The notes beneath the pieces are model-generated. The model did no database searches. It saw only the letters and a list, made by a program, of their open reading frames with translations, and was not told where the DNA came from. From positions 1-43,997 of the forward strand of contig CALUBY010000002.1 of assembly GCA_943914435.1 (NCBI GenBank): a stretch of 43,997 nucleotides of DNA, given 5' to 3'. Of this stretch, positions 10,829 to 34,020 are shown in pieces (within the stretch, counting starts at the first letter, position 1; every line of letters begins with the position of its first letter). Source of the stretch: an uncultured bacterium (lineage in GTDB: Bacteria > Patescibacteriota > Minisyncoccia > Phycocordibacterales > Phycocordibacteraceae). A program made the translations under genes and the position numbers.

Positions 10829-10885
10829 CTAGATACCCTAACGGCATACCCTTTATGCCGCAAGACAGGAGCAGGGAGGGTGCTA

Positions 10886-10914
10886 TTGACAAATATTTCT
10901 ATTATGTCTATAAT
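10886..10914 (+). promoter_or_regulatory. Perfect sigma70 consensus promoter (TTGACA-17 nt-TATAAT)
   Basis: TTGACA at 10886-10891, a 17-nt spacer, TATAAT at 10909-10914. It lies 62 nt upstream of the lipoprotein ATG. AGGAG at 10962-10966. Confidence 0.7.
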
Positions 10915-10975
10915 CACCCCAGAAAGTCCTTTTCATCGCAATAGTGTGTTGACGAGGCTTTAGGAGTTTACCCCA

Positions 10976-11653
10976 ATGACCATGAACATCATGCGAGGGG
11001 TGACCCTCGCTATCGCTGGCGCTTGTATGTCCCTGAGCCTCTCGGCTTGCGGCACCACAAGCGGATTCCAAACCACCGACTACGGCACCACCGGACCAAT
11101 CACCATGCAGGAATCCTCGGTGTCCCACACCAGGAACTACATGGTCGACACCCTCGTCGGCTACGACGCCGACGGCCACCGGAACCCCTCGCGCGAACTG
11201 AAGATGGATGAATCCATCTTGGTCGCCGAAGCGGACCGGTACTGCGCCGTCAAGGCCAAGGAAGTCGAAGGACTGCTCGGCGAGTACGTCGGGAATGGCA
11301 CCATCTTCGGTGTCGTTGGCGCGATCGCCCAAGCGGCTGGCTCGCTCGGCGTTCCCGGAGCGGACATCATGTCCTATGCCTCTCTCGGTGGAGGAAGCTT
11401 CACCGGCAGCGGCCTCCTCACGACCCGGATGATGATCAAGCAGACCCTGGTCATCCTTCACTCTTCCTGCATGCAGGCTGAGGTGAAGTCCGACTCGCGC
11501 GGCCGCAACCTCGGCATCTATCCGGTTCTCATGGGCAAGGCAATTCGCCCAGGAGTGTCGAACGAGCGCTCGCCGGTCTCACAAGACCGGCAGAACGACC
11601 TCCGAGACGAGGAAGCGAGCAGCAACCTGCCGTTCACCCCGATTCCGATGTAG
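10976..11653 (+). CDS. Putative lipoprotein, compositionally foreign (GC-rich)
   Basis: 225 aa with a signal peptide and lipobox (LSLSAC). Codons end mostly in G/C. It is on the opposite strand to all its neighbours. The antisense 192-aa ORF is a typical high-GC shadow. Confidence 0.8.
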   Translation: MTMNIMRGVTLAIAGACMSLSLSACGTTSGFQTTDYGTTGPITMQESSVSHTRNYMVDTLVGYDADGHRNPSRELKMDESILVAEADRYCAVKAKEVEGLLGEYVGNGTIFGVVGAIAQAAGSLGVPGADIMSYASLGGGSFTGSGLLTTRMMIKQTLVILHSSCMQAEVKSDSRGRNLGIYPVLMGKAIRPGVSNERSPVSQDRQNDLRDEEASSNLPFTPIPM

Positions 11654-11677
11654 GTCGGCGTCACCACACTATGCGAA

Positions 11678-11707
11678 AGTCCCCCGACACCGTCGGGGGA
11701 CTTTTTC
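11678..11707 (+). terminator. Intrinsic terminator (possibly bidirectional)
   Basis: AGTCCCCCGAC-ACC-GTCGGGGGACT followed by TTTTTC. The reverse read is followed by UUUCG and could also end the FKBP operon. Confidence 0.8.
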
Positions 11708-11729
11708 TATACTCGCAATAGGTAGTGTA

Positions 11730-12251
11730 TTACTGAACACTCACAAGCTCCACTTCAAACACAAGAGTCGCGTTCGCAGGAATAACTCCTCCCACTGCCT
11801 GATCCCCATAGGCGAGGTGCGGCGGAATAACGAGGAGACGCTTTCCTCCCACTTTCATACCTGCGACTCCCTGATCCCACCCCTTAATCACCTGCCCAGC
11901 TCCTAGAGGGAACGTAAATGCTCCGCCGTGGTTTGCGGATGCGTCGAATACCGTTCCATCAGGAAGTGATCCGGTGTAATTCACCGAGACGGTAGAGCCT
12001 GGAACCGCTTCAGCGCCGGTTCCCACAACCTGGTCGGTGATGGTTAGCTCCGTTGGTAGTGGTTCGTTTGGATTAAGAGATAGGTCCATAGTTGATGATG
12101 ACGTAGTCAAACTAGTAGTAGTACCGACGCCGACGTCCATTACAGACGGTGTGCCCGTAAAAGAGCTTAGTATCGGAGTTCCAAGGGCAAGAAATCCGAG
12201 TCCTACGACTACGGCGAGCGCTACCGCGATTCCCGTTCCAGTGACATTCAT
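11730..12251 (-). CDS. Membrane-anchored FKBP-type peptidyl-prolyl isomerase
   Basis: 173 aa with an N-terminal TM helix, a Thr/Ser linker and an FKBP domain (VNYTGSLPDGTVFDAS, GQVIKGWDQGVAGMKVGGKR, LVFEVELV). Confidence 0.9.
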   Translation of the reverse strand: MNVTGTGIAVALAVVVGLGFLALGTPILSSFTGTPSVMDVGVGTTTSLTTSSSTMDLSLNPNEPLPTELTITDQVVGTGAEAVPGSTVSVNYTGSLPDGTVFDASANHGGAFTFPLGAGQVIKGWDQGVAGMKVGGKRLLVIPPHLAYGDQAVGGVIPANATLVFEVELVSVQ

Positions 12252-12571: not shown

Positions 12572-14971
12572 CTAAAGAGTTGGGGGTACGGGCTCATAAT
12601 TATCAGGGTGTGGTATAGGGGGCACAGGAAGAGGAAGTCCTCCTTCTGACACATACGGTACCACCATACCAGTACCCTGAGCACTTGCGCCATCAAGGAT
12701 CAGTCCACGCACCGTACGCTCAAGACCGCCAAGTACACTTATGCGATCCTCAACGTAATACGCGGGCGTGCCCGGATGTGTGCGCGCGAAGTCACGTGCC
12801 ATCTCATAGTTCTGTTCGTTACCTCCACCTCCCTGTGCAAAGTACGTGTCCCCTACTTTCACCATACTTGGCTGAGTAAGATCAACGCCATGCGCATTCA
12901 ATGTGCTCTCTTGAGGAACATCTTCAGATGAGCCTGACACGATAGGATCCGATGCAGTAGAGGTGGTGTGTTCAGGAACCGTTGATGCAGGTGGCTGTTC
13001 TGACGCGGAAACCGGTTCAGAAGTATTTCGGAGTGTCTCCTCAGGAATGTGCGGCGTGCTGTCAGGAGTAGGCTCGAGTGGAATACTCTTAACTTCCGTA
13101 TCTGACATGGTTTGAATATCTCCTTCTGCATCAAGCGACTCGGGAGAAATATCTGGCGTAATTGATGCACGGCTATTCTCCGTGATAAATTCGGCGGCAG
13201 CGCTATTCTGTATATCAGGGGCACTCGGAAGAGGTTCAGGATCAGCAGACAAGGCCTCTGGCACAACCGACGTAGGAGTCGCGCCTTTAAGATACGACTC
13301 ATACGAAATACTCGTGTCGTACGCATCCGGCGCCATTGGGGGTATCTCTTGCCCACCACTGAGTACCTGCTGCATGTTTAGATCAGCGGTTATCTTTGCC
13401 TGTTCTTCTAGTGAAGGAGAAGAAATTTCAGGCGAGGTCACGGGAGAAGCTTCTGAAGGTGCGCTCACCTCGGGAGAAGGAGTAGTGCTCACAACGCTTT
13501 CAACACTCTGCTTTTCTACTACTGCCTCCGGCGAAGGAGCAGCGGGAGGAACTTCCTGAGGGGCTACTGCAGGTGTTTCCTCTACAACTACCTTGAGTTC
13601 CTCGCTTTCGACTGCAGGCATATTTGATTCAGCAGGAGATACGGGTGGAGTGGGCAGTAAATCTGTGCTTCCCGCTACCGTAGCGGCTTCCTGTATCACC
13701 GCGAAGTCTGCAAGCACTGCAGCAGAGCCCGCACCCACACCCATTGCAACGAGTGCTTTTGTAATGGCTTTTCTTTTTTGGAACACTGCCTCATCAGTCT
13801 CTTTAACTAACTTCTCGCGTTTCGTATCAAGCGTACGAAGTGAATCAACATCAAGCTCAGTATTGATTGCCTTCATGTTGGTACGGTGCAAGGATTCCTT
13901 TGCCGCTTGCTGAGCCTTCCTTCCAAAGAATTCAAACGCCGCACCAGTCGTCTCACCAGCAGCTGCACCAAGCACTACACCCCCCAAAGAACGGGCAAAT
14001 TTATAAGTGCCAACTCCCGCAAGAGCCGCAAGCCCAAGCGGGGCCGTAACGCCAGCCGCTCCGAGAGCAGCAGCACCTCCCGAGATAAGGACCGCACTCG
14101 CTGCAGCTCTAATCACGCGAGCACCCATCTTTCCATACTTCTTATCAAGACCAGCGTTTACTTTTCCTGACCACGTAAGTGCCTTATCAAAAGCATTGCG
14201 CTTACGCCCACTCAAAGCCTCAAGGCGAGCTGCGTTCTTCTTCTCAGCAAGAGGGCGCACCACTTCCCGGAAGCGTAAATATCCGGCCACGCGCTCTGCA
14301 CGAGTCTCATTCTTAACAATCGCACGTCGCATAAATATATCGAAACTAATCTCTTCACCGCTCTCTGTGCGCTCAAGTGCCCCTGCCTGCTTTAGTTCCT
14401 CGTACTTTGCACGCGTACGCTCTTCAAGAGTCTTTGTACGCTCAGCAACTTTTTCAGAAACATTCTGAGTGAGTGCATTTGCGTAAGCAACACGTGACTC
14501 GTCGTACTCACGACGAAGTGCTTCTACTTTCTTTTCTTCATTTTGGATATTTCCTCGTCGAAGGAGGAGACGATTAATAATCGTTCTGCGTCGCTCTAAA
14601 TCTTTGTAAGCGGAAAGGTAAGCAGCTTCCTTTTCCTTAAGAGCAGCGCGTTCAGGGGCGGCAGCAGACTCTTTTGGCGCGTCAGTAATTTCACCTGCAG
14701 GTGGTGAGTCTGGTGTTCTTCCCGCGCGCGCTTTCAACTGGCGCAATATCTCCTGCCTTGCCTCTCTAGGTGTATCAATATCTTCATTAATGCGCAGCGC
14801 GTGCGCATTCTCAGGAACCACGACAAGTTCTTCTGAAGGAGCATCTTCTTCAGAAGAGATTGGCTCACTTTCTCCTCCCTCTAGGGAAGAAATAGTTTCA
14901 TTTCCCTCAGGAGCTTCAATGGCATCCTGCTTCTTAACGTCATCGGGATATGGAGGACCTTCTTTTGGCAT
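12572..14971 (-). CDS. Large membrane protein: N-terminal coiled coil, Gly/Ala-rich TM helices, long Pro/Ser/Glu/Thr disordered region, small C-terminal globular domain
   Basis: 799-aa ORF starting 4 nt after the stop of the ATPase gene. TM candidates are ARVIRAAASAVLISGGAAALGAAGV, LGLAALAGVGTYKF..GGVVLGAAAG and ALVAMGVGAGSAAVLADFAVI. Confidence 0.8.
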   Translation of the reverse strand: MPKEGPPYPDDVKKQDAIEAPEGNETISSLEGGESEPISSEEDAPSEELVVVPENAHALRINEDIDTPREARQEILRQLKARAGRTPDSPPAGEITDAPKESAAAPERAALKEKEAAYLSAYKDLERRRTIINRLLLRRGNIQNEEKKVEALRREYDESRVAYANALTQNVSEKVAERTKTLEERTRAKYEELKQAGALERTESGEEISFDIFMRRAIVKNETRAERVAGYLRFREVVRPLAEKKNAARLEALSGRKRNAFDKALTWSGKVNAGLDKKYGKMGARVIRAAASAVLISGGAAALGAAGVTAPLGLAALAGVGTYKFARSLGGVVLGAAAGETTGAAFEFFGRKAQQAAKESLHRTNMKAINTELDVDSLRTLDTKREKLVKETDEAVFQKRKAITKALVAMGVGAGSAAVLADFAVIQEAATVAGSTDLLPTPPVSPAESNMPAVESEELKVVVEETPAVAPQEVPPAAPSPEAVVEKQSVESVVSTTPSPEVSAPSEASPVTSPEISSPSLEEQAKITADLNMQQVLSGGQEIPPMAPDAYDTSISYESYLKGATPTSVVPEALSADPEPLPSAPDIQNSAAAEFITENSRASITPDISPESLDAEGDIQTMSDTEVKSIPLEPTPDSTPHIPEETLRNTSEPVSASEQPPASTVPEHTTSTASDPIVSGSSEDVPQESTLNAHGVDLTQPSMVKVGDTYFAQGGGGNEQNYEMARDFARTHPGTPAYYVEDRISVLGGLERTVRGLILDGASAQGTGMVVPYVSEGGLPLPVPPIPHPDNYEPVPPTL

Positions 14972-14975
14972 AGAA

Positions 14976-17714
14976 TTAAGATAGGTAACGCGCTTTTATA
15001 TGTGCTTCAACTGTAGCACGGTCACGTCCATACGTAAGATAGGAAAGTTCACGTAAGTCATCCACCTGATCGAGGTTCCCTTCATTCAAGCTCAGGGTAT
15101 GAATGTTGAAGGGTTTTTGCGGAACTCCCCCTGCAAGCATGCGCAGGTATGCGTTTCGGTTTTCAATATTCGTGAAGTCTGCGGCAGTAAACGTTGGCTC
15201 AAAGAGTTTGCCAAAAAACTCTCCGTCTTCCTGCCCCACACGAAACACCGCCATTGACCCCACGTTACCAAATATCGCATCACGAATCTTTTCATCAATC
15301 TGTGCCAGGTACTGGTGAGCAATAGTAAGCGATAGCTTGTACTTGCGAGCCTCGGAGAGAATGCCAGGAATTGAGTTCGTTGTTATGTTCTGGAACTCAT
15401 CGATATAGAGGTAAAACGGCGGGAAGTCAGCGCGGGGATCATCTGCACGCGAGAGCGCTGCCATAAAGAGCTTGCCCACAATAATGAGTCCAAGCAGGTT
15501 TGCATTACGCTCACCAAGCCGGCCCTTCGAGAGGTTCACGAGCAGAATCTTCTTGCTATCAATAACATCACGGAAGTTAAATGAGCTTTCCTGCTGACCA
15601 ATGATAGGACGCATGAAGTCGCTACCCGTAAATTCATCAAACTTGTTTGTGATGTACGGCACAATATTCTGTAGCGACGCTTCCCCCTCTGCTTTTGTCG
15701 CAATCTCCTGCCAGAACTGATTCACAATAGGATTATTGCTTCGCGCAAGCTTGTAGTTACGGAACTCAGCATTCGAGAGCACGCGACCAATATCCATGAG
15801 CGTTGATCCGGACGCAGGGTCCTCCATAACAAGCTGGGTAGCATTGCGGAAGTACTGCTCGAATGCCGGGCCCATAGACTCAGGTACGTCGCCATAAAGC
15901 TGACGGAATATAGCGAGCATTTCGTTCACAATGAACGTCTTCTGCTCAGGACGCTTCGGATCGTACTCAAGCATATTGAGACCAAACGGACGGTCAATGT
16001 TTGCGGGGTCAAAGTAAATGACATCCTCATACCGTTCAGGAGGCACGGTCGCAAGCACATCGAGTATGTCGTTGCCGTGGGGATCAATAAAACAAACTCC
16101 CTTTCCGTCTTTAATATCTTGCTCAATAAGCGTACGCATAAAGCCCGACTTTCCGGTTCCCGTTTGGCCAATGACATAAAGGTGTCGAAGGCGGTCTTGA
16201 TCTGCGAGCTTTATGGTCGCTGTTCCTCCACGATAGGTGTTTGTGCCAAGCGTAATGCCCTCTTTGGGAAGCCCGACCGGCGCTGCAGCGCCTGCGAAAC
16301 GCGCTTGCTTCAGGTTTGGAGTCGATTCTATGCCTGACGGTGGGAAATGATAGAGCGTCGTAAGCTCACGAAGTGATAGGGGGAGAACAGTGCTTGAGCG
16401 ATACAAACGGAACGTGTAGTCCCGCAGAAGCTGCTTCAGCGTTGCCTTACTTGGTCGACGAAACTCAATGCGGTTTCCAAGCGTGTTATCAAACTGATTA
16501 AACGAAGATTCGAGCTCACCAAGAAGCTGGTGGGTGCGGGCATGGTCACGCGTGGATACCGCAAGACGAATATTTGTCGCAACAATCGGTGCAGCGATTT
16601 TCTTCTCAACCATAGCAATCGCCTTCTCGTCGACGGTTTGCGATGCGGGCAGTTTCTTTTTGGTGAAGAGGAGTCCCGCTGCCTCGCGCGCAAGGTCTCC
16701 CACAAAAGTCTCAGGCAGATTAAACGCCCGTGAACGGTGTTCGCCATCACGAAGTGCATGAAGCACCTTACGATAATGGTCAATGTAATGATTGCCTTCA
16801 GGCTTAAAGATGATCTGAAGCGCAGCACCTTCGCCCTCCGTCGCAACTTTTGCGAATGCGTTGAGGATCGAATTAATCGGGTCGTAATCAAAGTCCTGAT
16901 AATCCTTCAACGGAAGCATTGGCTTATCCTTAAGCTCAGCGACCGAAGCGAGCTGAATACCGTCTTCAAGGAAAATATTGTAATCGTTTGGCTGTGGAGT
17001 CAGATGCGCATGAGGAAATATGGCAAGAAGCTGGTTTTGAAAGAGGTCGCGCTTCGTATTTGGTACAGCCGCATAAAACATAAGGCTCGACTCGTCTACC
17101 GGCATCGCAAGCTCAAGGGTGCAGTACGCAGGCTCTCCTCGTTCAGGATGACCAACGGCGAGCATGCCAGAGTAAAACTGCTCCATAGAGGAGATAAGTT
17201 CTTTCAGGGTGCGTGCTCGCGACTCTTCTGAAGTGTTTGTCTCAGGAAGAGAAATCTCATACAGGGTCATATGAAGCGCCTTCCACTCAGGCTGATTCTC
17301 CGACAAGCCCTTTGGTTGCATACCAACTACCAAATACTGCACCAGAAAGCGATGGAAATCGTCTTCAAGGTGCGCATTATTCAGTTTTGCAAGAATAGTG
17401 AACGCGTTATGAATACCCTTCTCCTCCATGACGCCTCGCAGCTCAGCAATCGTCGCGTCATTTTGCTCGGGATCAAGATTGAGCGTCAGTGTTTCTGCAT
17501 GTGCCGCTGCTTCTTTATCAGATATTTGATAGTGAGGGGCGAGCACGTGTTCTGGGCCCGTCATGCGGTGATGAAGAACACGCTCGTGCGCAATGTCAGC
17601 AAGTGGTGTCTCGCGACGTATAGAAGCGAGCTCGGCTTCTTTCTGTGCTATTTGTGCACGCAGGTACGCAAGCTCGTCCTGAGGCGATTCAATCGGTCGT
17701 ATCGGTCCCTCCAT
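14976..17714 (-). CDS. TraD/VirD4 (type IV coupling protein)-like P-loop ATPase with a roughly 500-aa unassigned soluble N-terminal region
   Basis: 912 aa. Walker A is VIGQTGTGKSGF (about residues 514-525) and Walker B is FYLYIDEFQ (about 767-775). The C-terminal part is TraD/TraG-like (SLTIAHQYLAQIDEKIRDAIFGNVGSMAVFRVG). No TM helix is seen. Confidence 0.8.
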   Translation of the reverse strand: MEGPIRPIESPQDELAYLRAQIAQKEAELASIRRETPLADIAHERVLHHRMTGPEHVLAPHYQISDKEAAAHAETLTLNLDPEQNDATIAELRGVMEEKGIHNAFTILAKLNNAHLEDDFHRFLVQYLVVGMQPKGLSENQPEWKALHMTLYEISLPETNTSEESRARTLKELISSMEQFYSGMLAVGHPERGEPAYCTLELAMPVDESSLMFYAAVPNTKRDLFQNQLLAIFPHAHLTPQPNDYNIFLEDGIQLASVAELKDKPMLPLKDYQDFDYDPINSILNAFAKVATEGEGAALQIIFKPEGNHYIDHYRKVLHALRDGEHRSRAFNLPETFVGDLAREAAGLLFTKKKLPASQTVDEKAIAMVEKKIAAPIVATNIRLAVSTRDHARTHQLLGELESSFNQFDNTLGNRIEFRRPSKATLKQLLRDYTFRLYRSSTVLPLSLRELTTLYHFPPSGIESTPNLKQARFAGAAAPVGLPKEGITLGTNTYRGGTATIKLADQDRLRHLYVIGQTGTGKSGFMRTLIEQDIKDGKGVCFIDPHGNDILDVLATVPPERYEDVIYFDPANIDRPFGLNMLEYDPKRPEQKTFIVNEMLAIFRQLYGDVPESMGPAFEQYFRNATQLVMEDPASGSTLMDIGRVLSNAEFRNYKLARSNNPIVNQFWQEIATKAEGEASLQNIVPYITNKFDEFTGSDFMRPIIGQQESSFNFRDVIDSKKILLVNLSKGRLGERNANLLGLIIVGKLFMAALSRADDPRADFPPFYLYIDEFQNITTNSIPGILSEARKYKLSLTIAHQYLAQIDEKIRDAIFGNVGSMAVFRVGQEDGEFFGKLFEPTFTAADFTNIENRNAYLRMLAGGVPQKPFNIHTLSLNEGNLDQVDDLRELSYLTYGRDRATVEAHIKARYLS

Positions 17715-28857: not shown

Positions 28858-30105
28858 TTAGGCGTGTATCCCAGCAACGTACCCTGTCGTCCAGCACAGC
28901 TGCAGCGAATATCCTCCGGTTGGTCGCTTAATATTTAAAAGGTCTCCGATTACAAACAAGTTTGAGCAGACCGTTGAACGCATCGTCTTCATATCAATTT
29001 CCTTGAGCGTAACGCCTCCATCAGCAACGACCGCACGCGAAAGTCCCATGAGTCCGGTGATAGTAAGCGGGAGCGCCTTAAGCAGCTCTGCAATACGACG
29101 ACGTTCTTCCTTTGTAATGGAATGCACTCTTTTATCCTTATCAATATTTGGGATGAGCGTAAGAATGGCCTCACTCGTTCCCGCTGGCACGAACTGTCTC
29201 AAAGCATTTTGAAGCTCTTTGTTTTTGTTTTGATCAAAGATAGACGCAATGTGCTTATCAAGCACTCCAAGATCCATACCCGGATACACATCAATAGCAG
29301 CCGTTACTTCCCCTTCCTGCATAAGGTCAGAGATGGTGCCTGCCGCGTTCAAAATGAGCGGACCCGATATACCAAAGTGCGTAAGAAGAACGTCTCCTTT
29401 AAGTACAAGCTTCTTTAATCCCTGTACATAAACAGTCATGCGTATGTCCTTCAGAGTTGTTCCTGCAAGTGACTTCACCCATGCGTCTGAAACCTTAAGA
29501 GGCACGATGGTTGGAGTAGGGTCCGTTACGGTGTGACCCGCATCCGTAAGCCACCTAAACCCGTCTCCCGTTGAACCTGTTTCTGGATGAGAAACACCGC
29601 CGGTCGCAAACACATACGAACGCGCCGTGTATTCTTTTCCTCCCATAAGAACAGAGTCTATTTTTCCATTTGAAACATACACGCGCGCAACCGGAAGTCC
29701 TGTGCGTATATCAACTCCCTGTGCCTTAACGTATGCAAAGAGCGCTGCCGTCACATCAGCGGCGTCTTGCGTAACAGGAAAAGCACGCTTCTTTGCTTCT
29801 ACATAGGTAGGCACCTCAATACCTTCAAAAAAGGCCTCCGCATCTTTCATACCAAATTGGGAAAAGGGTGAGTGCAAGAAATTGGCAGAGTCTCCAAAGT
29901 GACTGAGTAGTGTTCGCTCATCTTCTTCTGCGTTCCATATATTGCAGCGTCCTCCTCCGGTTATAGAAAGCTTCTCGCCAAGCTTTTTATTCTTTTCGAT
30001 AAGAAGCACCTTCTTTCCCTGGGTCGCAGCAGTACCCGCCGCCATCATTCCGGCAGCACCACCCCCAACGACAATGACGTCGTAATCGTAGGCAGTTTTA
30101 GACAT
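28858..30105 (-). CDS. HI0933/YhiN-like FAD-dependent oxidoreductase
   Basis: 415 aa with Rossmann motif VIVVGGGAAGMMAAG and the family-typical GGGRCN. Confidence 0.85.
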   Translation of the reverse strand: MSKTAYDYDVIVVGGGAAGMMAAGTAATQGKKVLLIEKNKKLGEKLSITGGGRCNIWNAEEDERTLLSHFGDSANFLHSPFSQFGMKDAEAFFEGIEVPTYVEAKKRAFPVTQDAADVTAALFAYVKAQGVDIRTGLPVARVYVSNGKIDSVLMGGKEYTARSYVFATGGVSHPETGSTGDGFRWLTDAGHTVTDPTPTIVPLKVSDAWVKSLAGTTLKDIRMTVYVQGLKKLVLKGDVLLTHFGISGPLILNAAGTISDLMQEGEVTAAIDVYPGMDLGVLDKHIASIFDQNKNKELQNALRQFVPAGTSEAILTLIPNIDKDKRVHSITKEERRRIAELLKALPLTITGLMGLSRAVVADGGVTLKEIDMKTMRSTVCSNLFVIGDLLNIKRPTGGYSLQLCWTTGYVAGIHA

Positions 30106-30442
30106 GGCCCCATACTGCTAACTCGTTTCCTGCAGGATCGAGGAAATGAAAACGCTTTCCACCAGGGAACTCAAATATCGGCTTGGTAATAGTGCCTCCG
30201 CATAATTCGACATTCGCGAGAGTACTCTCAAGATCATCGGAGAAAAGAATAACAAGCGCGCCACCTTGTACAGGGGTTTCGCCTTTTTCAAACCCACCAT
30301 CAAGCGCGCCATCATTGAACGCTACATACGTAGGACCAAAGTCAGTAAAGCTCCACTCGAAAGCTTTTGTATAAAACTTTTTTATCGCCTCAAGATCCGG
30401 TGCCTGGAACTCGATGTAATTGATGCGGTTCGGGACGTTCAT
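30098..30442 (-). CDS. VOC (glyoxalase/bleomycin-resistance fold) family protein
   Basis: 114 aa that starts and ends in the way typical of VOC proteins (IEFQAPDLEAIKKFY...GNELAVW). Confidence 0.75.
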   Translation of the reverse strand: MNVPNRINYIEFQAPDLEAIKKFYTKAFEWSFTDFGPTYVAFNDGALDGGFEKGETPVQGGALVILFSDDLESTLANVELCGGTITKPIFEFPGGKRFHFLDPAGNELAVWGHV

Positions 30443-30483
30443 AAGGACACAATACCTTGATTACGGCAAATGTGCCATGGTCC

Positions 30484-30858
30484 CTATATTCGCTTTAAAC
30501 GGTTCTTCTTAATGAGCGCATTCTCCTCAACACGGAAGCTCGTGATCTTTGCAATGAGTTCATAGGGTAGTGGCTCATCAATAGGAAACTTTACGGTCCC
30601 TTTTGCGCCTCCATAACGAGCAAGTTCCTTCTTAAAGGAATGAATACCTCCTGGCCCTGGATAAAAACCAATGTGATTTTTAAATGCCCCAAAGTGCACC
30701 AGGTTCCCATCCTGCACAAAGGTAGGAATGCCATACTTAACAGCCTCGGTCGCCTTTGGTGCTGCACGCTGTATGGTTGTGCGCAGTGTTTGGAGGGTTT
30801 CTTGCACGTCCTTTGGAAAGGAGTCTATGTACTCGTCTATGGTTCGAAACGTTTTCAT
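30484..30858 (-). CDS. DUF1801/YdhG-like protein
   Basis: MKTFRTIDEYIDSFPKDVQETLQTLR... The start was moved to the internal ATG, which removes the overlap with the upstream gene. Confidence 0.7.
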   Translation of the reverse strand: MKTFRTIDEYIDSFPKDVQETLQTLRTTIQRAAPKATEAVKYGIPTFVQDGNLVHFGAFKNHIGFYPGPGGIHSFKKELARYGGAKGTVKFPIDEPLPYELIAKITSFRVEENALIKKNRLKRI

Positions 30859-30877
30859 GAGGAAACTATAGCAATCA

Positions 30878-31270
30878 TTACGGGTGCTTCTTGCCCTGCG
30901 CAAGCAACGTGCACGCTTTTTGTATTCGGCGCTCATGCGCCTCAGTCCCCTTTTCCGCGTTTACCCAGTCAGTAAAGTTGCGGCGCTCGTCCGGCGTGAG
31001 TTCTTTCCATGTCGCTTTCGCTTTAGGGTTCTTTGAAAGAGCTGTGTAGAGTCCCATAGGCACTACCGCATAACAACAAGGACGACGCTTTCCGCTTATA
31101 AGTTTGTCGCACGCAACGTCAATGCGACGCTTTCGAGTTTCAAGCTGCTTAGCCGATTCTATCCAGCTAATAAAATCTCTGCGTGCAATAGGCGTGAGCG
31201 TATCCCACTGCACTTTTGCGAGCGGTTTGCTCAGAAGTGCCTTACGAAAATCAGTCGGTATCGATGTCAT
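30878..31270 (-). CDS. YdeI/OmpD-associated family protein
   Basis: 130 aa containing a duplicated motif (W..LTP..RR.F..W...AK..ETR.RRI). Confidence 0.7.
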   Translation of the reverse strand: MTSIPTDFRKALLSKPLAKVQWDTLTPIARRDFISWIESAKQLETRKRRIDVACDKLISGKRRPCCYAVVPMGLYTALSKNPKAKATWKELTPDERRNFTDWVNAEKGTEAHERRIQKACTLLAQGKKHP

Positions 31271-31404
31271 AGCTAGGTTCGTACGTATATATAGGTAGAA
31301 ACAGTATCGAGCGACATAATACCTCTAGCGTAGCATTCTCACACTTGAGTAACATGCATATACGCTATTCGACTCAGGCGTACCGTATATGGTACGTTTG
31401 CACC

Positions 31405-31622
31405 GGACACTTGAGCAACAAGGGAGGCCAGTACGGTCGGATCAGCATGCCGACCCAAATACCTTCCTTGGCCAGGTACTATGAAACGAGCGGTTGTATC
31501 CGGTGCTTTGCTTTTTGGACAGTAAAGTATCGCATCCCGCCACGTCAGCCTCAACGAGAGCAGCAAGTACCTGGTGCTCAAGTGTCCACCCCAACCAAGC
31601 GCGCTTCACAGCGCGCTTTTTT
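31405..31622 (+). ncRNA. Unclassified structured RNA: tight three-way junction (P1 13 bp, P2 9 bp, P3 9 bp) plus intrinsic terminator
   Basis: P1 pairs 31405-31417 with 31575-31587 (perfect). P2 pairs 31419-31427 with 31462-31470 (one G:U). P3 pairs 31472-31480 with 31566-31574 (perfect). Linkers are 1, 1 and 0 nt. An inner hairpin pairs 31435-31440 with 31450-31455. The terminator AGCGCGCU-UCAC-AGCGCGCU plus U6 is at 31598-31622. Confidence 0.65.
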
Positions 31623-31753
31623 CATGGCACCAAAGAGAACATGAAAAACTCGTTTTAGAACAAGGACTACTAGCAAAACACTCAGTATCAGGTAGTCTGC
31701 TATCAGAGCAGGAACGGTCCTGCAAACAGTTCACCCATACAAGGAGTGTGGAG

Positions 31754-32245
31754 ATGAAAATTAGTATCATCATTGCGTGCCTGATTCTTGTTTGGGCTAT
31801 CTACCGGCACTTCCGTACCCGATATATTGGTTTCGGATGGGTTCTTGAGTATCGAGAGGACACTCACGACGTTATCGTGAGCTCGAGGCTTCTGAATGGC
31901 CCGGCAGGAAAGGTTGGCATCAACAACAACAGTATTCTTCTTGAGTACGATGGCGTACCCATGCGCTTCGCCTCCGAAGAAGAGTGGGCAGCGTTTTTTG
32001 CCAACCGACCAAAACTGAAGCCGGGGATGTCTCGACGCTTTCTGCTCAAACAAGGAGACGCTGTGCTCAATGTTGAAATGAAAGCCTGTGTTATTCATGG
32101 TGGCGTGCCGATGTATCATGCCCCAACCCCACGTCATCAACGGAAATTCGACGTTGTATATGGAATGGGCAGATGCAAGAAAACGGGTCTATTGTACGAG
32201 ACCACACGGCCCAATTGGGCGTGGAGTTCTCTTCGTGGGTCGTAA
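31754..32245 (+). CDS. Membrane-anchored PDZ-like domain protein
   Basis: AAGGAG lies 8 nt before the ATG at 31754. The protein has a TM helix (ISIIIACLILVWAIY), a PDZ-like loop and core (YIGFGWVL...LLNGPAGKVGINNNSILLEYDGVPM). The longer track ORF overlaps the RNA and its terminator. Confidence 0.7.
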   Translation: MKISIIIACLILVWAIYRHFRTRYIGFGWVLEYREDTHDVIVSSRLLNGPAGKVGINNNSILLEYDGVPMRFASEEEWAAFFANRPKLKPGMSRRFLLKQGDAVLNVEMKACVIHGGVPMYHAPTPRHQRKFDVVYGMGRCKKTGLLYETTRPNWAWSSLRGS

Positions 32246-32264
32246 TACTCACCTATCACTAAGC

Positions 32265-32300
32265 GAAAGTCGCTCAACTCTGTTGGGCGACTTCTTTTTA
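32265..32300 (+). terminator. Intrinsic terminator
   Basis: GAAAGTCGCTCAAC-TCT-GTTGGGCGACTTC followed by TTTTT. Confidence 0.7.
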
Positions 32301-32373
32301 ATGAGGTATTCCAGGTAGCACTGGAGCTTTTTGCGCTACGTGTTATGTTTCCGTACAGAAAGAGGAGGTGTCC

Positions 32374-32886
32374 ATGAATTCCATACGAAGATTGTTTCAG
32401 CGTAAGAAATTACCTGAATCTAGTTCGGGTCTCCCAATCAAAGAGACCATTCAGGTCTTTGGGGGATGTGGCCATCCGGGTCCACGAAAAAATTTAGAGA
32501 TCCGTATATTTGGATACCCGGCAACGGTATTTGAATCCCCCTCATGTGCCGCATGCACCGAGGTGCGATTCAATGAGTGCAGTACGCATTGTGCTGGGTG
32601 CGAGTATCCAATTATGCCAGGCGAACCAGTGGCAGCATCGTGGGTTGATGCTGCCCATCCCTATACGCACATGTCGAGCAAATGCGGTAATCCGGATTTC
32701 TATGCAGGAGTATGGGGAGCCGGAGTACTTATTGGACTCGAAGAACTGCACCCCGAAATCTTTGGACCGAAATTCATTAACGATCTTTTACTGCCACCGA
32801 TTGCTCGGTGGCTTTTTTGTCTGGTTACTGCTCTCAGCAGGTATGCAATTTTCAGAATAGTACCTATGATTTCTATCGAAACTTGA
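32374..32886 (+). CDS. Cys-rich hypothetical protein with hydrophobic C-terminal tail
   Basis: AGGAGG lies 5 nt before the ATG at 32374. Cys clusters are GGCGHPG, SPSCAACTEVRFNECSTHCAGCEYP and KCGNPDF. The tail is IARWLFCLVTALSRYAIFRIV. Confidence 0.6.
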   Translation: MNSIRRLFQRKKLPESSSGLPIKETIQVFGGCGHPGPRKNLEIRIFGYPATVFESPSCAACTEVRFNECSTHCAGCEYPIMPGEPVAASWVDAAHPYTHMSSKCGNPDFYAGVWGAGVLIGLEELHPEIFGPKFINDLLLPPIARWLFCLVTALSRYAIFRIVPMISIET

Positions 32887-32990
32887 GGAGTCTAGGACAC
32901 CCCCTTTGGAGGGTTCGTGCCCATGACTCGTTCTTAAAATGCTTTACAAAATATAGCGATTTTAAGAGTCTCGATAGCTCTCACATGGCT

Positions 32991-33007
32991 GCTGGCAGTC
33001 TGGGACG
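32991..33007. repeat. 17-nt direct repeat, copy 1 (GCTGGCAGTCTGGGACG)
   Basis: 16 of 17 nt are identical to 33304-33320. The pair brackets the 62-aa gene and its terminator. Confidence 0.6.
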
Positions 33008-33063
33008 ATGTTGGAACCCTTGTGCAACGTATGGTACGTTCTGTCTAGACAAGGAGAATATTA

Positions 33064-33252
33064 ATGGGTACTCATCCAACTGACAAAAGAAGTGGCGTCG
33101 TGACCGATGATGGTGCGAAGCACGCCGAGAGGAACATTTACAGAGCGCGTGATCCAAAACCGCTTCCTGAAGAGTCACCTGACACCGCTTTCAGCAAGGA
33201 GCAGAAAGAGCGGGCCTGGAACCTGATAAGGCCGGACCACACCGGCAAGTAA
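33064..33252 (+). CDS. Small hydrophilic 62-aa protein
   Basis: AAGGAG lies 8 nt before the ATG and the gene has its own terminator. No motif is recognised. Confidence 0.5.
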   Translation: MGTHPTDKRSGVVTDDGAKHAERNIYRARDPKPLPEESPDTAFSKEQKERAWNLIRPDHTGK

Positions 33253-33258
33253 ATATAT

Positions 33259-33300
33259 CGCGTACGGGAAACTGCTCCTTGTGCGCGGTTTCTCTTTTTT
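33259..33300 (+). terminator. Intrinsic terminator
   Basis: CGCGTAC...GTGCGCG stem followed by GTTTCTCTTTTTT. Confidence 0.6.
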
Positions 33301-33303
33301 GTT

Positions 33304-33320
33304 GCTGACAGTCTGGGACG
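33304..33320. repeat. 17-nt direct repeat, copy 2 (GCTGACAGTCTGGGACG)
   Basis: See 32991-33007. It is followed 3 nt later by hairpin repeat copy 2. Confidence 0.6.
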
Positions 33321-33323
33321 TGG

Positions 33324-33346
33324 GAAATGGGGCCAGTCACCATTTC
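33324..33346. repeat. 23-nt hairpin repeat, copy 2
   Basis: GAAATGGGGCCAGTCACCATTTC, compared with GAAATGGGGACAGGCACCATTTC at 46-68. Confidence 0.6.
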
Positions 33347-33428
33347 TGAGAAGCGGAACTAGTACGATAATGGTATCGCGCAGTAAGTAACAATGTACCC
33401 ACACTATTAGCTACGAGCGGAAAATATA

Positions 33429-33476
33429 TGCTAGTATCCCCTTGCTAGGAATCGCGTTGGGCGATTCTGTTCTTTT
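33429..33476 (+). promoter_or_regulatory. Extended -10 (TGCTAGTAT) followed by a terminator-like leader hairpin just before the start codon
   Basis: TG at 33429-33430 and TAGTAT at 33432-33437. The hairpin GAATCGC-GTTGG-GCGATTC is at 33449-33467, followed by TGTTCTTTT. The ATG is at 33488. Confidence 0.4.
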
Positions 33477-33487
33477 GGAAGAGCGAC

Positions 33488-33856
33488 ATGAAATTTCTTC
33501 GTTCGGGAGTAACCGCCGCAGCTGCGCTGGCTATCCTGTCCAGTGCAGGCTACGCCGTGGCTCAATCAAGCGACGGCATGAATCGTCGAGTTGAAGTTCA
33601 CAACCACACGGACACTTCTGTCTTTGAATTCTACGCTTCGACGACGAGAGAAACGTCTTGGGAAGAAGACATTCTCGGCACTAACGTCATCCTTCCTGGT
33701 GCTGAAGTGAGAATGAATCTCGACGACGGCACGAACTTCTGTGAGTACGACATCAAGGTCGTCTTCAGAGGCGGGGTTACGCTGTACGAGGCCTCAGTTA
33801 ACGTCTGTGCAGTTTCTATCATCGACATCTACGCTAACGACATTCGGCCTCGGTAA
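33488..33856 (+). CDS. Small secreted protein (Sec signal peptide, two Cys)
   Basis: 122 aa. The signal peptide is MKFLRSGVTAAAALAILSSAGYAVA-QS. The mature part contains SWEEDILG and two Cys (NFCEYD, NVCAV). Confidence 0.7.
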   Translation: MKFLRSGVTAAAALAILSSAGYAVAQSSDGMNRRVEVHNHTDTSVFEFYASTTRETSWEEDILGTNVILPGAEVRMNLDDGTNFCEYDIKVVFRGGVTLYEASVNVCAVSIIDIYANDIRPR

Positions 33857-33875
33857 GGTCACAAGTAAAACAAAA

Positions 33876-33909
33876 GTCTGGCGGAAACATCTTTCCGCCA
33901 GACTTTTTT
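33876..33909 (+). terminator. Intrinsic terminator
   Basis: GTCTGGCGGAAA-CATC-TTTCCGCCAGAC followed by TTTTTT. Confidence 0.85.
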
Positions 33910-33949
33910 AGTTTTAAACAAGTTAAAATCTTAAATCACTATTTGTTTG

Positions 33950-34020
33950 CTGGGGGACTAGGGATCGAACCTAGATTGAGGGCTTCAAAGGCCCCTGTCC
34001 TACCATTAGACGATCCCCCA
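33950..34020 (-). tRNA. tRNA-Gln (anticodon UUG)
   Basis: A 71-nt cloverleaf was folded by hand: acceptor UGGGGGA/UCCCCCA with U1:A72, anticodon loop CUUUGAA, T arm CUAGG-UUCGAUC-CCUAG, discriminator G. Confidence 0.9.

Follow-up and report, generated by a model that had tools for sequence, protein, structure and literature searches.

A probable stand-alone structured small RNA gene in one Patescibacteria lineage, with a constant P1-P2 module and a fast-changing inner domain

A stand-alone, highly structured small non-coding RNA is probably encoded on the + strand of a Patescibacteria contig, with a 183-nt body and a terminator of its own, and a probability of roughly 0.6 is given to this reading as a whole. 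The RNA belongs to a family so far undescribed and, as far as can be seen, it is confined to one species-level Patescibacteria lineage. Comparison of its two alleles shows that P1, P2, an upstream palindrome and the terminator are held constant, while an inner domain formed by P3, H4 and H5 outpaces synonymous sites with its length and helix layout kept. Judged at the sequence level, constraint acts on the individual bases of P1-P2 and on the structure of the fast-changing inner domain. A large part of bacterial diversity belongs to the Patescibacteria (candidate phyla radiation), whose non-coding RNAs are, to our knowledge, almost entirely unexplored. The locus offers a concrete candidate of this kind, backed by evidence of selection and elaborate in build, with five helices and paired ends. 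The fold-keeping, rapidly changing inner domain is also a compact natural test case for RNA structure under rapid sequence turnover. The distribution known so far is very narrow and the wider importance of the RNA is unproven.

The window, that is, the whole stretch of DNA analysed, is an entire contig of 43,997 nt from a Paceibacteria-like member of the Patescibacteria. Within it, the RNA gene sits in a 483-nt intergenic gap. The initial annotation had described here three nested helices around a tight three-way junction, followed by a terminator. All three helices, P1, P2 and P3, are present at the positions it gave, with linkers of 1, 1 and 0 nt, and they are reproduced in the minimum free energy (MFE) structure of 31400-31625 (-98.1 kcal/mol, ViennaRNA). 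Its view that such nesting is unlikely by chance is borne out by dinucleotide shuffling, as none of 200 shuffled sequences folded as well (mean -64, sd 4.7; z = -7.26). The reverse strand also beats its shuffles, although less exceptionally (z = -4.40). In P1 (GGACACTTGAGCA/TGCTCAAGTGTCC), 13 Watson-Crick pairs can be drawn, of which the MFE structure uses 12 (31405-16/31576-87); U31575 goes to P3 as a G.U pair, and A31417:U31575 is a possible thirteenth pair. P2 carries the internal loop and the 6-bp hairpin reported earlier: a basal helix of 9 bp (31419-27/31462-70) of purine/pyrimidine type (AAGGGAGG/CCUUCCUU) with one G.U is followed by the internal loop CCAGUAC/CAAAUA and an apical helix (31435-40/31450-55) with a 9-nt loop, AUCAGCAUG. 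The core of P3 (31472-80/31566-74) consists of 9 perfect base pairs in the window allele, and the further pairing that had been suspected inside it resolves into two hairpins, H4 and H5 (ViennaRNA). The terminator after P1 was likewise recovered by a terminator scan, as a 9-bp stem starting at 31597 with a T run behind it. The features of the locus are compiled in Table 1.

Table 1. Features of the putative RNA gene and its surroundings (positions in the window)
Feature	Position	Strand	Description	Basis
ydeI-like gene	30878-31270	-	Divergent neighbour on one side of the RNA gap	
Direct copy of P1 5' arm	31341-31354	+	ACACTTGAGTAACA vs ACACTTGAGCAACA	Repeat search
Perfect 18-nt palindrome	31379-31396	.	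CGTACCGTATATGGTACG; 8 nt upstream of P1; invariant between alleles	
RNA gene (inferred)	31405-31622	+	183-nt body (31405-31587), 9-nt C-rich spacer, intrinsic terminator	Fold, terminator scan, orthologous allele
P1 5' strand	31405-31417	+	GGACACTTGAGCA; identical in both alleles	
P2	31419-31470	+	Sequence-invariant module	
P3 5' strand	31471-31480	+	Weakened to 6 bp with 3 wobbles in sister allele	Fold
H4	31486-31545	+	Long irregular hairpin inside P3; 3 + 4 + 2 + 12 bp, 8-nt loop UUUUGGAC	
H5	31548-31564	+	Short hairpin inside P3; 5' side CGUCAGCC is one conserved island	
P3 3' strand	31566-31575	+		Fold in both alleles
P1 3' strand	31575-31587	+	TGCTCAAGTGTCC; one A->G in sister allele, U:A -> U.G	
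C-rich single-stranded spacer	31588-31596	+	ACCCCAACC; ACCCCUACCU in sister allele	
Intrinsic terminator	31597-31622	+	9-bp G+C-rich stem (31597-31618), loop UCAC, U run	Terminator scan
Downstream gene, 163 codons	31754-32245	+	Other side of the gap; ATG at 31754; no Pfam family	

Searches with Rfam 15 at the gathering threshold returned only two tRNAs in the whole window. When the limit was relaxed to E <= 10, for stretches of 601 nt and 231 nt and for the sister allele, the + strand matches were weak and terminator-driven, the one exception being a 12.7-bit match of a miRNA model (E = 9.6) inside H4. None of the models for SRP RNA, 6S RNA, RNase P, tmRNA, Y-like RNA, msr, riboswitches or ribozymes matched either allele at E <= 10. 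The earlier statement that the RNA fits no known family thus holds against Rfam 15 for the + strand body of both alleles, the terminator-driven matches and the miRNA-model match aside. It is very improbable that a divergent SRP RNA, 6S RNA, Y RNA or retron msr-msd has gone unrecognised by these models. Such a reading could appeal to the length of about 185 nt and the paired ends, which recall 6S and Y RNA, to the order of P1, a hairpin and a long hairpin, which recalls the a1/a2 repeats, msr and msd of retrons, and to the GUCAGCC...AGCAGC of H5, which recalls domain IV of SRP RNA when set beside what we take to be the E. coli 4.5S RNA sequence. However, the 231-nt search gave no SRP, 6S, Y-like or msr match at E <= 10, and a housekeeping RNA would be expected to occur in relatives and to lack a domain faster than synonymous sites.

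Comparison with the individual systems leads in the same direction. The likeness to SRP RNA is local, with no long helix 5 and no GNAR tetraloop; an SRP-like reading was rejected, since the loop of H5 reads AACGA in the window allele and CAUCGA in the sister, where GGCA takes the place of AGCA. With 6S RNA the candidate shares its size, paired ends and a stand-alone gene, but the strands of the would-be bubble pair together at the base of H4 in both alleles, and the closing stem is interrupted by the side hairpin P2. Y RNA and YrlA are similar in joining an end-formed stem with a conserved recognition module to a quickly varying internal module, yet no tRNA-like module is present here and no Ro/Rsr (TROVE) protein was found among the window proteins scanned. 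A retron msr-msd was dismissed on similar grounds, since no reverse transcriptase (RVT) domain occurs in the window proteins scanned or in the domains of the homologous genes of a third lineage (L085, see below). A hammerhead-like reading of GAAAC...GUC was discarded for want of CUGANGA and of a model match, the GAAA not being stem-adjacent in the sister allele. Other small self-cleaving ribozymes (twister etc.) had no model match in either allele. In setting, the RNA resembles orphan structured small RNAs known from the analysis of intergenic regions, such as unnamed candidate motifs and lineage-specific sRNAs with intrinsic terminators, which share the intergenic place, the own terminator, a fold far above chance and the lack of an assigned function. 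Compared with most of these, the present RNA is more elaborate, with five helices, nested junctions and paired ends, and its split into base-invariant and shape-only modules is unusually sharp. A literature search returned nothing relevant to this RNA.

Homologues of the RNA were recovered through its neighbouring genes. For neither the ydeI-like protein nor the downstream protein were close relatives found beyond its own 90% cluster, and a cluster look-up led to four short ENA contigs (L081-L084) carrying ydeI at >=90% identity. R1, a covariance model of the window sequence folded as in its MFE structure, matched all four over the full length of 183 nt (114.5 bits) at the same locus upstream of ydeI, and the four are identical. 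Additionally, a Logan contig (L086) carries the window's own allele. Two distinct alleles were found in this way, those of the window and of a sister strain; the six source samples include SRR11304755 and, for the sister allele, ERZ27333144. L085 (SRR24760247) belongs to a third lineage, 93-94% identical to the lineages of both alleles, and ends inside ydeI. In a JGI contig (3300071358), where the second downstream gene has a more distant relative, a gap of 240 nt occupies the corresponding place, ahead of a 168-codon gene that is presumably the PDZ-like homologue. Elsewhere the searches gave no homologue: R1 and a further model, R2, found none in 30 syntenic Patescibacteria loci (~560 kb), including the four closest loci searched with filters off; nhmmer and blastn found none in 80 dnaX loci; and none was present at the loci around YdeI homologues and around homologues of the downstream gene. 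Pattern scans of metagenome and viral sequences and blastn against phages and plasmids were also negative.

The two alleles differ in a highly uneven manner. Five flanking genes supplied the neutral yardstick: at their 4-fold degenerate sites, 82/400 positions differ (20.5%; JC-corrected 0.24). Only 1 of 67 positions differs in the 5' strand of P1 together with P2 (31405-31471; p = 4e-6 vs neutral), and when the upstream palindrome is added the count is 1/93 (p = 1e-8 vs neutral), with no change at all between the palindrome and P1 (31379-31404). The 3' strand of P1 has 1/13 differences, the spacer segment 2/10 and the terminator segment 1/28, the last in the loop; the intergenic stretch 31271-31378 has 14/108. 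The inner domain (31472-31574) differs at 40/104 positions, i.e. 38.5%, an excess over the neutral rate (p = 2e-5). Along 2.5 kb, a sliding comparison gave 87-100% identity throughout, except for the two segments covering the inner domain, with 60% and 72%. The conservation of P1-P2, far below the neutral rate of change, points to a specific partner.

Sequence divergence notwithstanding, each allele measures exactly 183 nt and shows a common five-helix layout. The sister allele keeps the architecture by compensatory and wobble changes rather than breaking the helices, an outcome that does not refute the RNA by the test set in the initial annotation. P1 is kept, and so is P2, but for one C.A mismatch in its apical helix. 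The sub-helices of H4 follow a common order in different sequence, as 3+4+2+12 bp in the window and 5+6+2+10 bp in the sister. Its apical stem is preserved by four one-sided transitions, its 2-bp element changes from UG/CA to CA/UG, and its middle stem from GCGG/CCGC to AAGCAU/GUGCUU. H5 occupies the same positions in both alleles (pairs 144-157 to 147-154). In all, 93.6% of the pair cells are standard; double-sided changes affect 7 pairs and one-sided changes 8, in a comparison of two sequences whose alignment was fitted to the structure. When the partners were slid by 1-3 columns, 36-44% were paired with 1-3 double changes, and just 1-2 of 500 column shuffles reached the observed pairing values. 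G.U cells number 13 and A.C cells 1, and the pairing is thus selected on the + strand RNA rather than on DNA or the - strand. The tight and perfect P3 described initially is true of the window allele, but in the sister this helix has 6 bp with three wobbles and is about iso-energetic with an open junction, forcing it costing 0.5 kcal/mol (-75.0 vs -75.5). Identical runs inside the inner domain (GCUUUGCU, UUUGGAC, CGUCAGCC and UGAAAC) may mark functional spots, the 7-8-nt runs being by estimate only modestly above chance. The initial description of a strongly supported structured RNA is therefore sound as to the structured RNA and overstated in its wording, as only two alleles are at hand.

The same comparison bears on whether the locus might instead code, on one strand or the other, for a small protein whose middle part varies. 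Long open frames do exist on both strands of both alleles. Nevertheless, three single-base indels shift the registers between the alleles, which do not share their start codons, Pfam gives no match, and the constant module lacks the synonymous variation found in every neighbouring gene. Moreover, the changes in the H4 stem are pair-preserving. This is the least probable of the readings considered, and the overlapping ORFs are best taken as non-coding, as already proposed, given the shifted frames and the absence of a Pfam match.

The rapid change of the inner domain calls for an explanation of its own. Its spectrum of 23 transitions, 15 transversions and 2 indels resembles that of the 4-fold sites (49:25), so ordinary point mutation suffices and no special mutational process needs to be invoked. 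Furthermore, the RNA sequence is identical in two sister strains that are themselves slightly different, and hence there is no sign of very rapid hypermutation. The excess over neutrality may arise in three ways. The first is diversifying selection. The second is recombination, by which the domain would have been imported from a lineage farther away, the breakpoints lying within the invariant flanks; recombination tracts do occur in the population, since a 140-nt part of the DUF1801 gene (window ~30600-30750) contains 15 of the 16 differences between the otherwise near-identical contigs L081 (873-1013) and L082, a cluster that looks like a recombination tract. The third is that the yardstick underestimates neutrality. 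It is a speculative idea, to be held at low probability, that P3-H4-H5 forms a specificity module under diversifying selection on an invariant P1-P2 recognition scaffold. If this were true, phages, a competing partner or self/non-self discrimination may drive its shape or sequence surface to change, and the variable module would parallel, in RNA, the hypervariable surfaces of proteins. Diversity-generating retroelements (DGR) with template and variable repeats were considered and rejected: no partner repeat is present in the window, even with adenines ignored (best 0.53 identity), and the alleles differ by indels and by substitutions of every type, which also disfavours a DGR. An invertible segment between inverted repeats was likewise set aside, as the conserved islands keep their order in both alleles.

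The position of the RNA ahead of a gene on the same strand raises the question of a cis-acting leader or attenuator. The downstream gene (31754-32245) belongs to a small family of membrane-anchored proteins of 150-190 aa (69 representatives), and the RNA could regulate it as a riboswitch-like element or by put/EAR-type antitermination. The shared orientation accords with such a role, and a three-way junction followed by a terminator recalls many riboswitches. Additionally, no promoter-like site is found between the terminator and the ATG at 31754, with no sigma-70-like match in 31625-31753, and these 129 nt are conserved beyond neutral expectation (8/129 differences vs 20.5% at 4-fold sites) with no significant fold (z = -1.2). 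A promoter scan recognised no sigma-70 promoter for the RNA either. Since no promoter-like site is seen on either side of the terminator and the 5' region of the downstream gene is conserved, a single transcription unit of the RNA with this gene is possible. As a regulatory leader, however, the RNA departs from the three-way-junction riboswitches, which it resembles in a P1-closed junction, an intrinsic terminator and a place upstream of a gene. The complementarity between the body and the 3' half of the terminator was matched by 74/1000 shuffles for the window and 519/1000 for the sister, so that no switching helix stands above chance, and the terminator hairpin is self-contained. The inner domain enclosing the junction is the fastest-evolving stretch of the locus, unlike a ligand-binding core. 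Moreover, the RNA is not tied to the downstream family elsewhere: in its three closest representatives (41-45% identical), the upstream region spans just 50-108 nt and does not match the model. A leader function is accordingly rather unlikely. Complementarity of the RNA to the downstream 5' UTR (repeats I8, I9) was examined as well and rejected, as it does not co-vary between the alleles.

Of the two functional options raised by the initial annotation, the stand-alone small RNA is thus favoured and the riboswitch-like leader disfavoured, there being no antiterminator, a fast inner domain and relatives without the RNA. For the stand-alone RNA, a sequence-read module joined to a shape-only inner domain makes action in trans most likely; it would then form part of an RNA-protein complex or serve as a small regulatory RNA, a sensor function for the downstream gene being less likely. 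The constant P1-P2 module would be read by its sequence, most simply by a protein partner or through fixed tertiary contacts. Pairing of its 5' and 3' ends may shield the RNA from exonucleases, and P3-H4-H5 might contribute no more than a shape or a specificity surface. It is possible that the C-rich spacer serves as a base-pairing seed. Within the window, base-pairing targets of the P2 loop, the H4 loop and the inner domain gave chance-level matches only.

Some features of the flanks invite a reading at the level of DNA, namely a MITE, a recombination site or a transfer-origin-like site with the fold as a by-product. P1 and P3 are perfect Watson-Crick palindromic arms, and the arms of P1 could serve as 13-bp terminal inverted repeats. 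The trinucleotide ACC lies beside both arms, being too short to judge as a target-site duplication, and the - strand also folds well (z = -4.4). A third copy of the arm, ACACTTGAGTA, occurs 66 nt upstream of P1, and the sister allele retains its core CACACTTGAGTA; were this copy transcribed, it could pair alternatively with the 3' strand of P1. Against a DNA element, the sequence is single-copy in the 44-kb window and absent from ~560 kb of relatives, it keeps an orthologous position in both strains, and its terminator is strand-specific. The 13 G.U against 1 A.C favour a + strand RNA, and the proteins scanned include no transposase, integrase or relaxase. Such an origin is hence improbable. 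The palindrome CGTACCGTATATGGTACG, unique in the window with 0.01 expected by chance, is a candidate operator or (unusual) promoter element; were it included in the transcript, it could be a 5' hairpin instead.

The surroundings of the RNA are those of an ordinary chromosome. The window carries uvrABC, tgt, ddl, serS, topA, dprA, dus, dnaX, an ABC-F protein and sigma factors, and its dnaX is 76-45% identical to dnaX of MAGs labelled Paceibacterota, Saccharibacteria or Patescibacteria. Reverse transcriptase, integrase, transposase and relaxase are absent from the window proteins scanned and from the gene list of L085, and libraries of defence and phage proteins did not match the ORFs neighbouring the RNA. 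The two ORFs downstream of the RNA have no Pfam family. For the first of them, the start codon at 31754 given initially is present; its PDZ-like character amounts to a weak, sub-threshold resemblance (E = 0.4-0.9). In the sister strain (L082/L083), a 1-nt deletion right after the annotated ATG (window 31754-31765) means that the gene must start at the next ATG, 5 nt on. The gene order beyond dnaX is kept in relatives, and the stretch from tRNA-Gln to the ABC-F gene that holds the RNA is variable. The block 30098-33948, from tRNA-Gln (33949-34020, -) to a HI0933-like gene, is different in every relative examined and looks like a variable region beside a tRNA gene, without an integrase. In the same block, the longest form of the DUF1801 ORF (150 codons, 30484-30936) overlaps the end of ydeI (30878-31270) by 59 nt; the 124-codon form called in other assemblies probably has the real start. 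Farther away, a 912-aa ATPase with HerA/FtsK/TraG-like domains adjoins a 799-aa protein without a Pfam family (12572-17714), and the pair may constitute a type IV secretion or DNA-uptake module. Finally, the G+C content reaches 59.5% in window positions 11001-12000 compared with ~50% elsewhere, and this G+C-rich stretch overlaps a 192-codon ORF without a Pfam family (10883-11461) and an overlapping + strand ORF.
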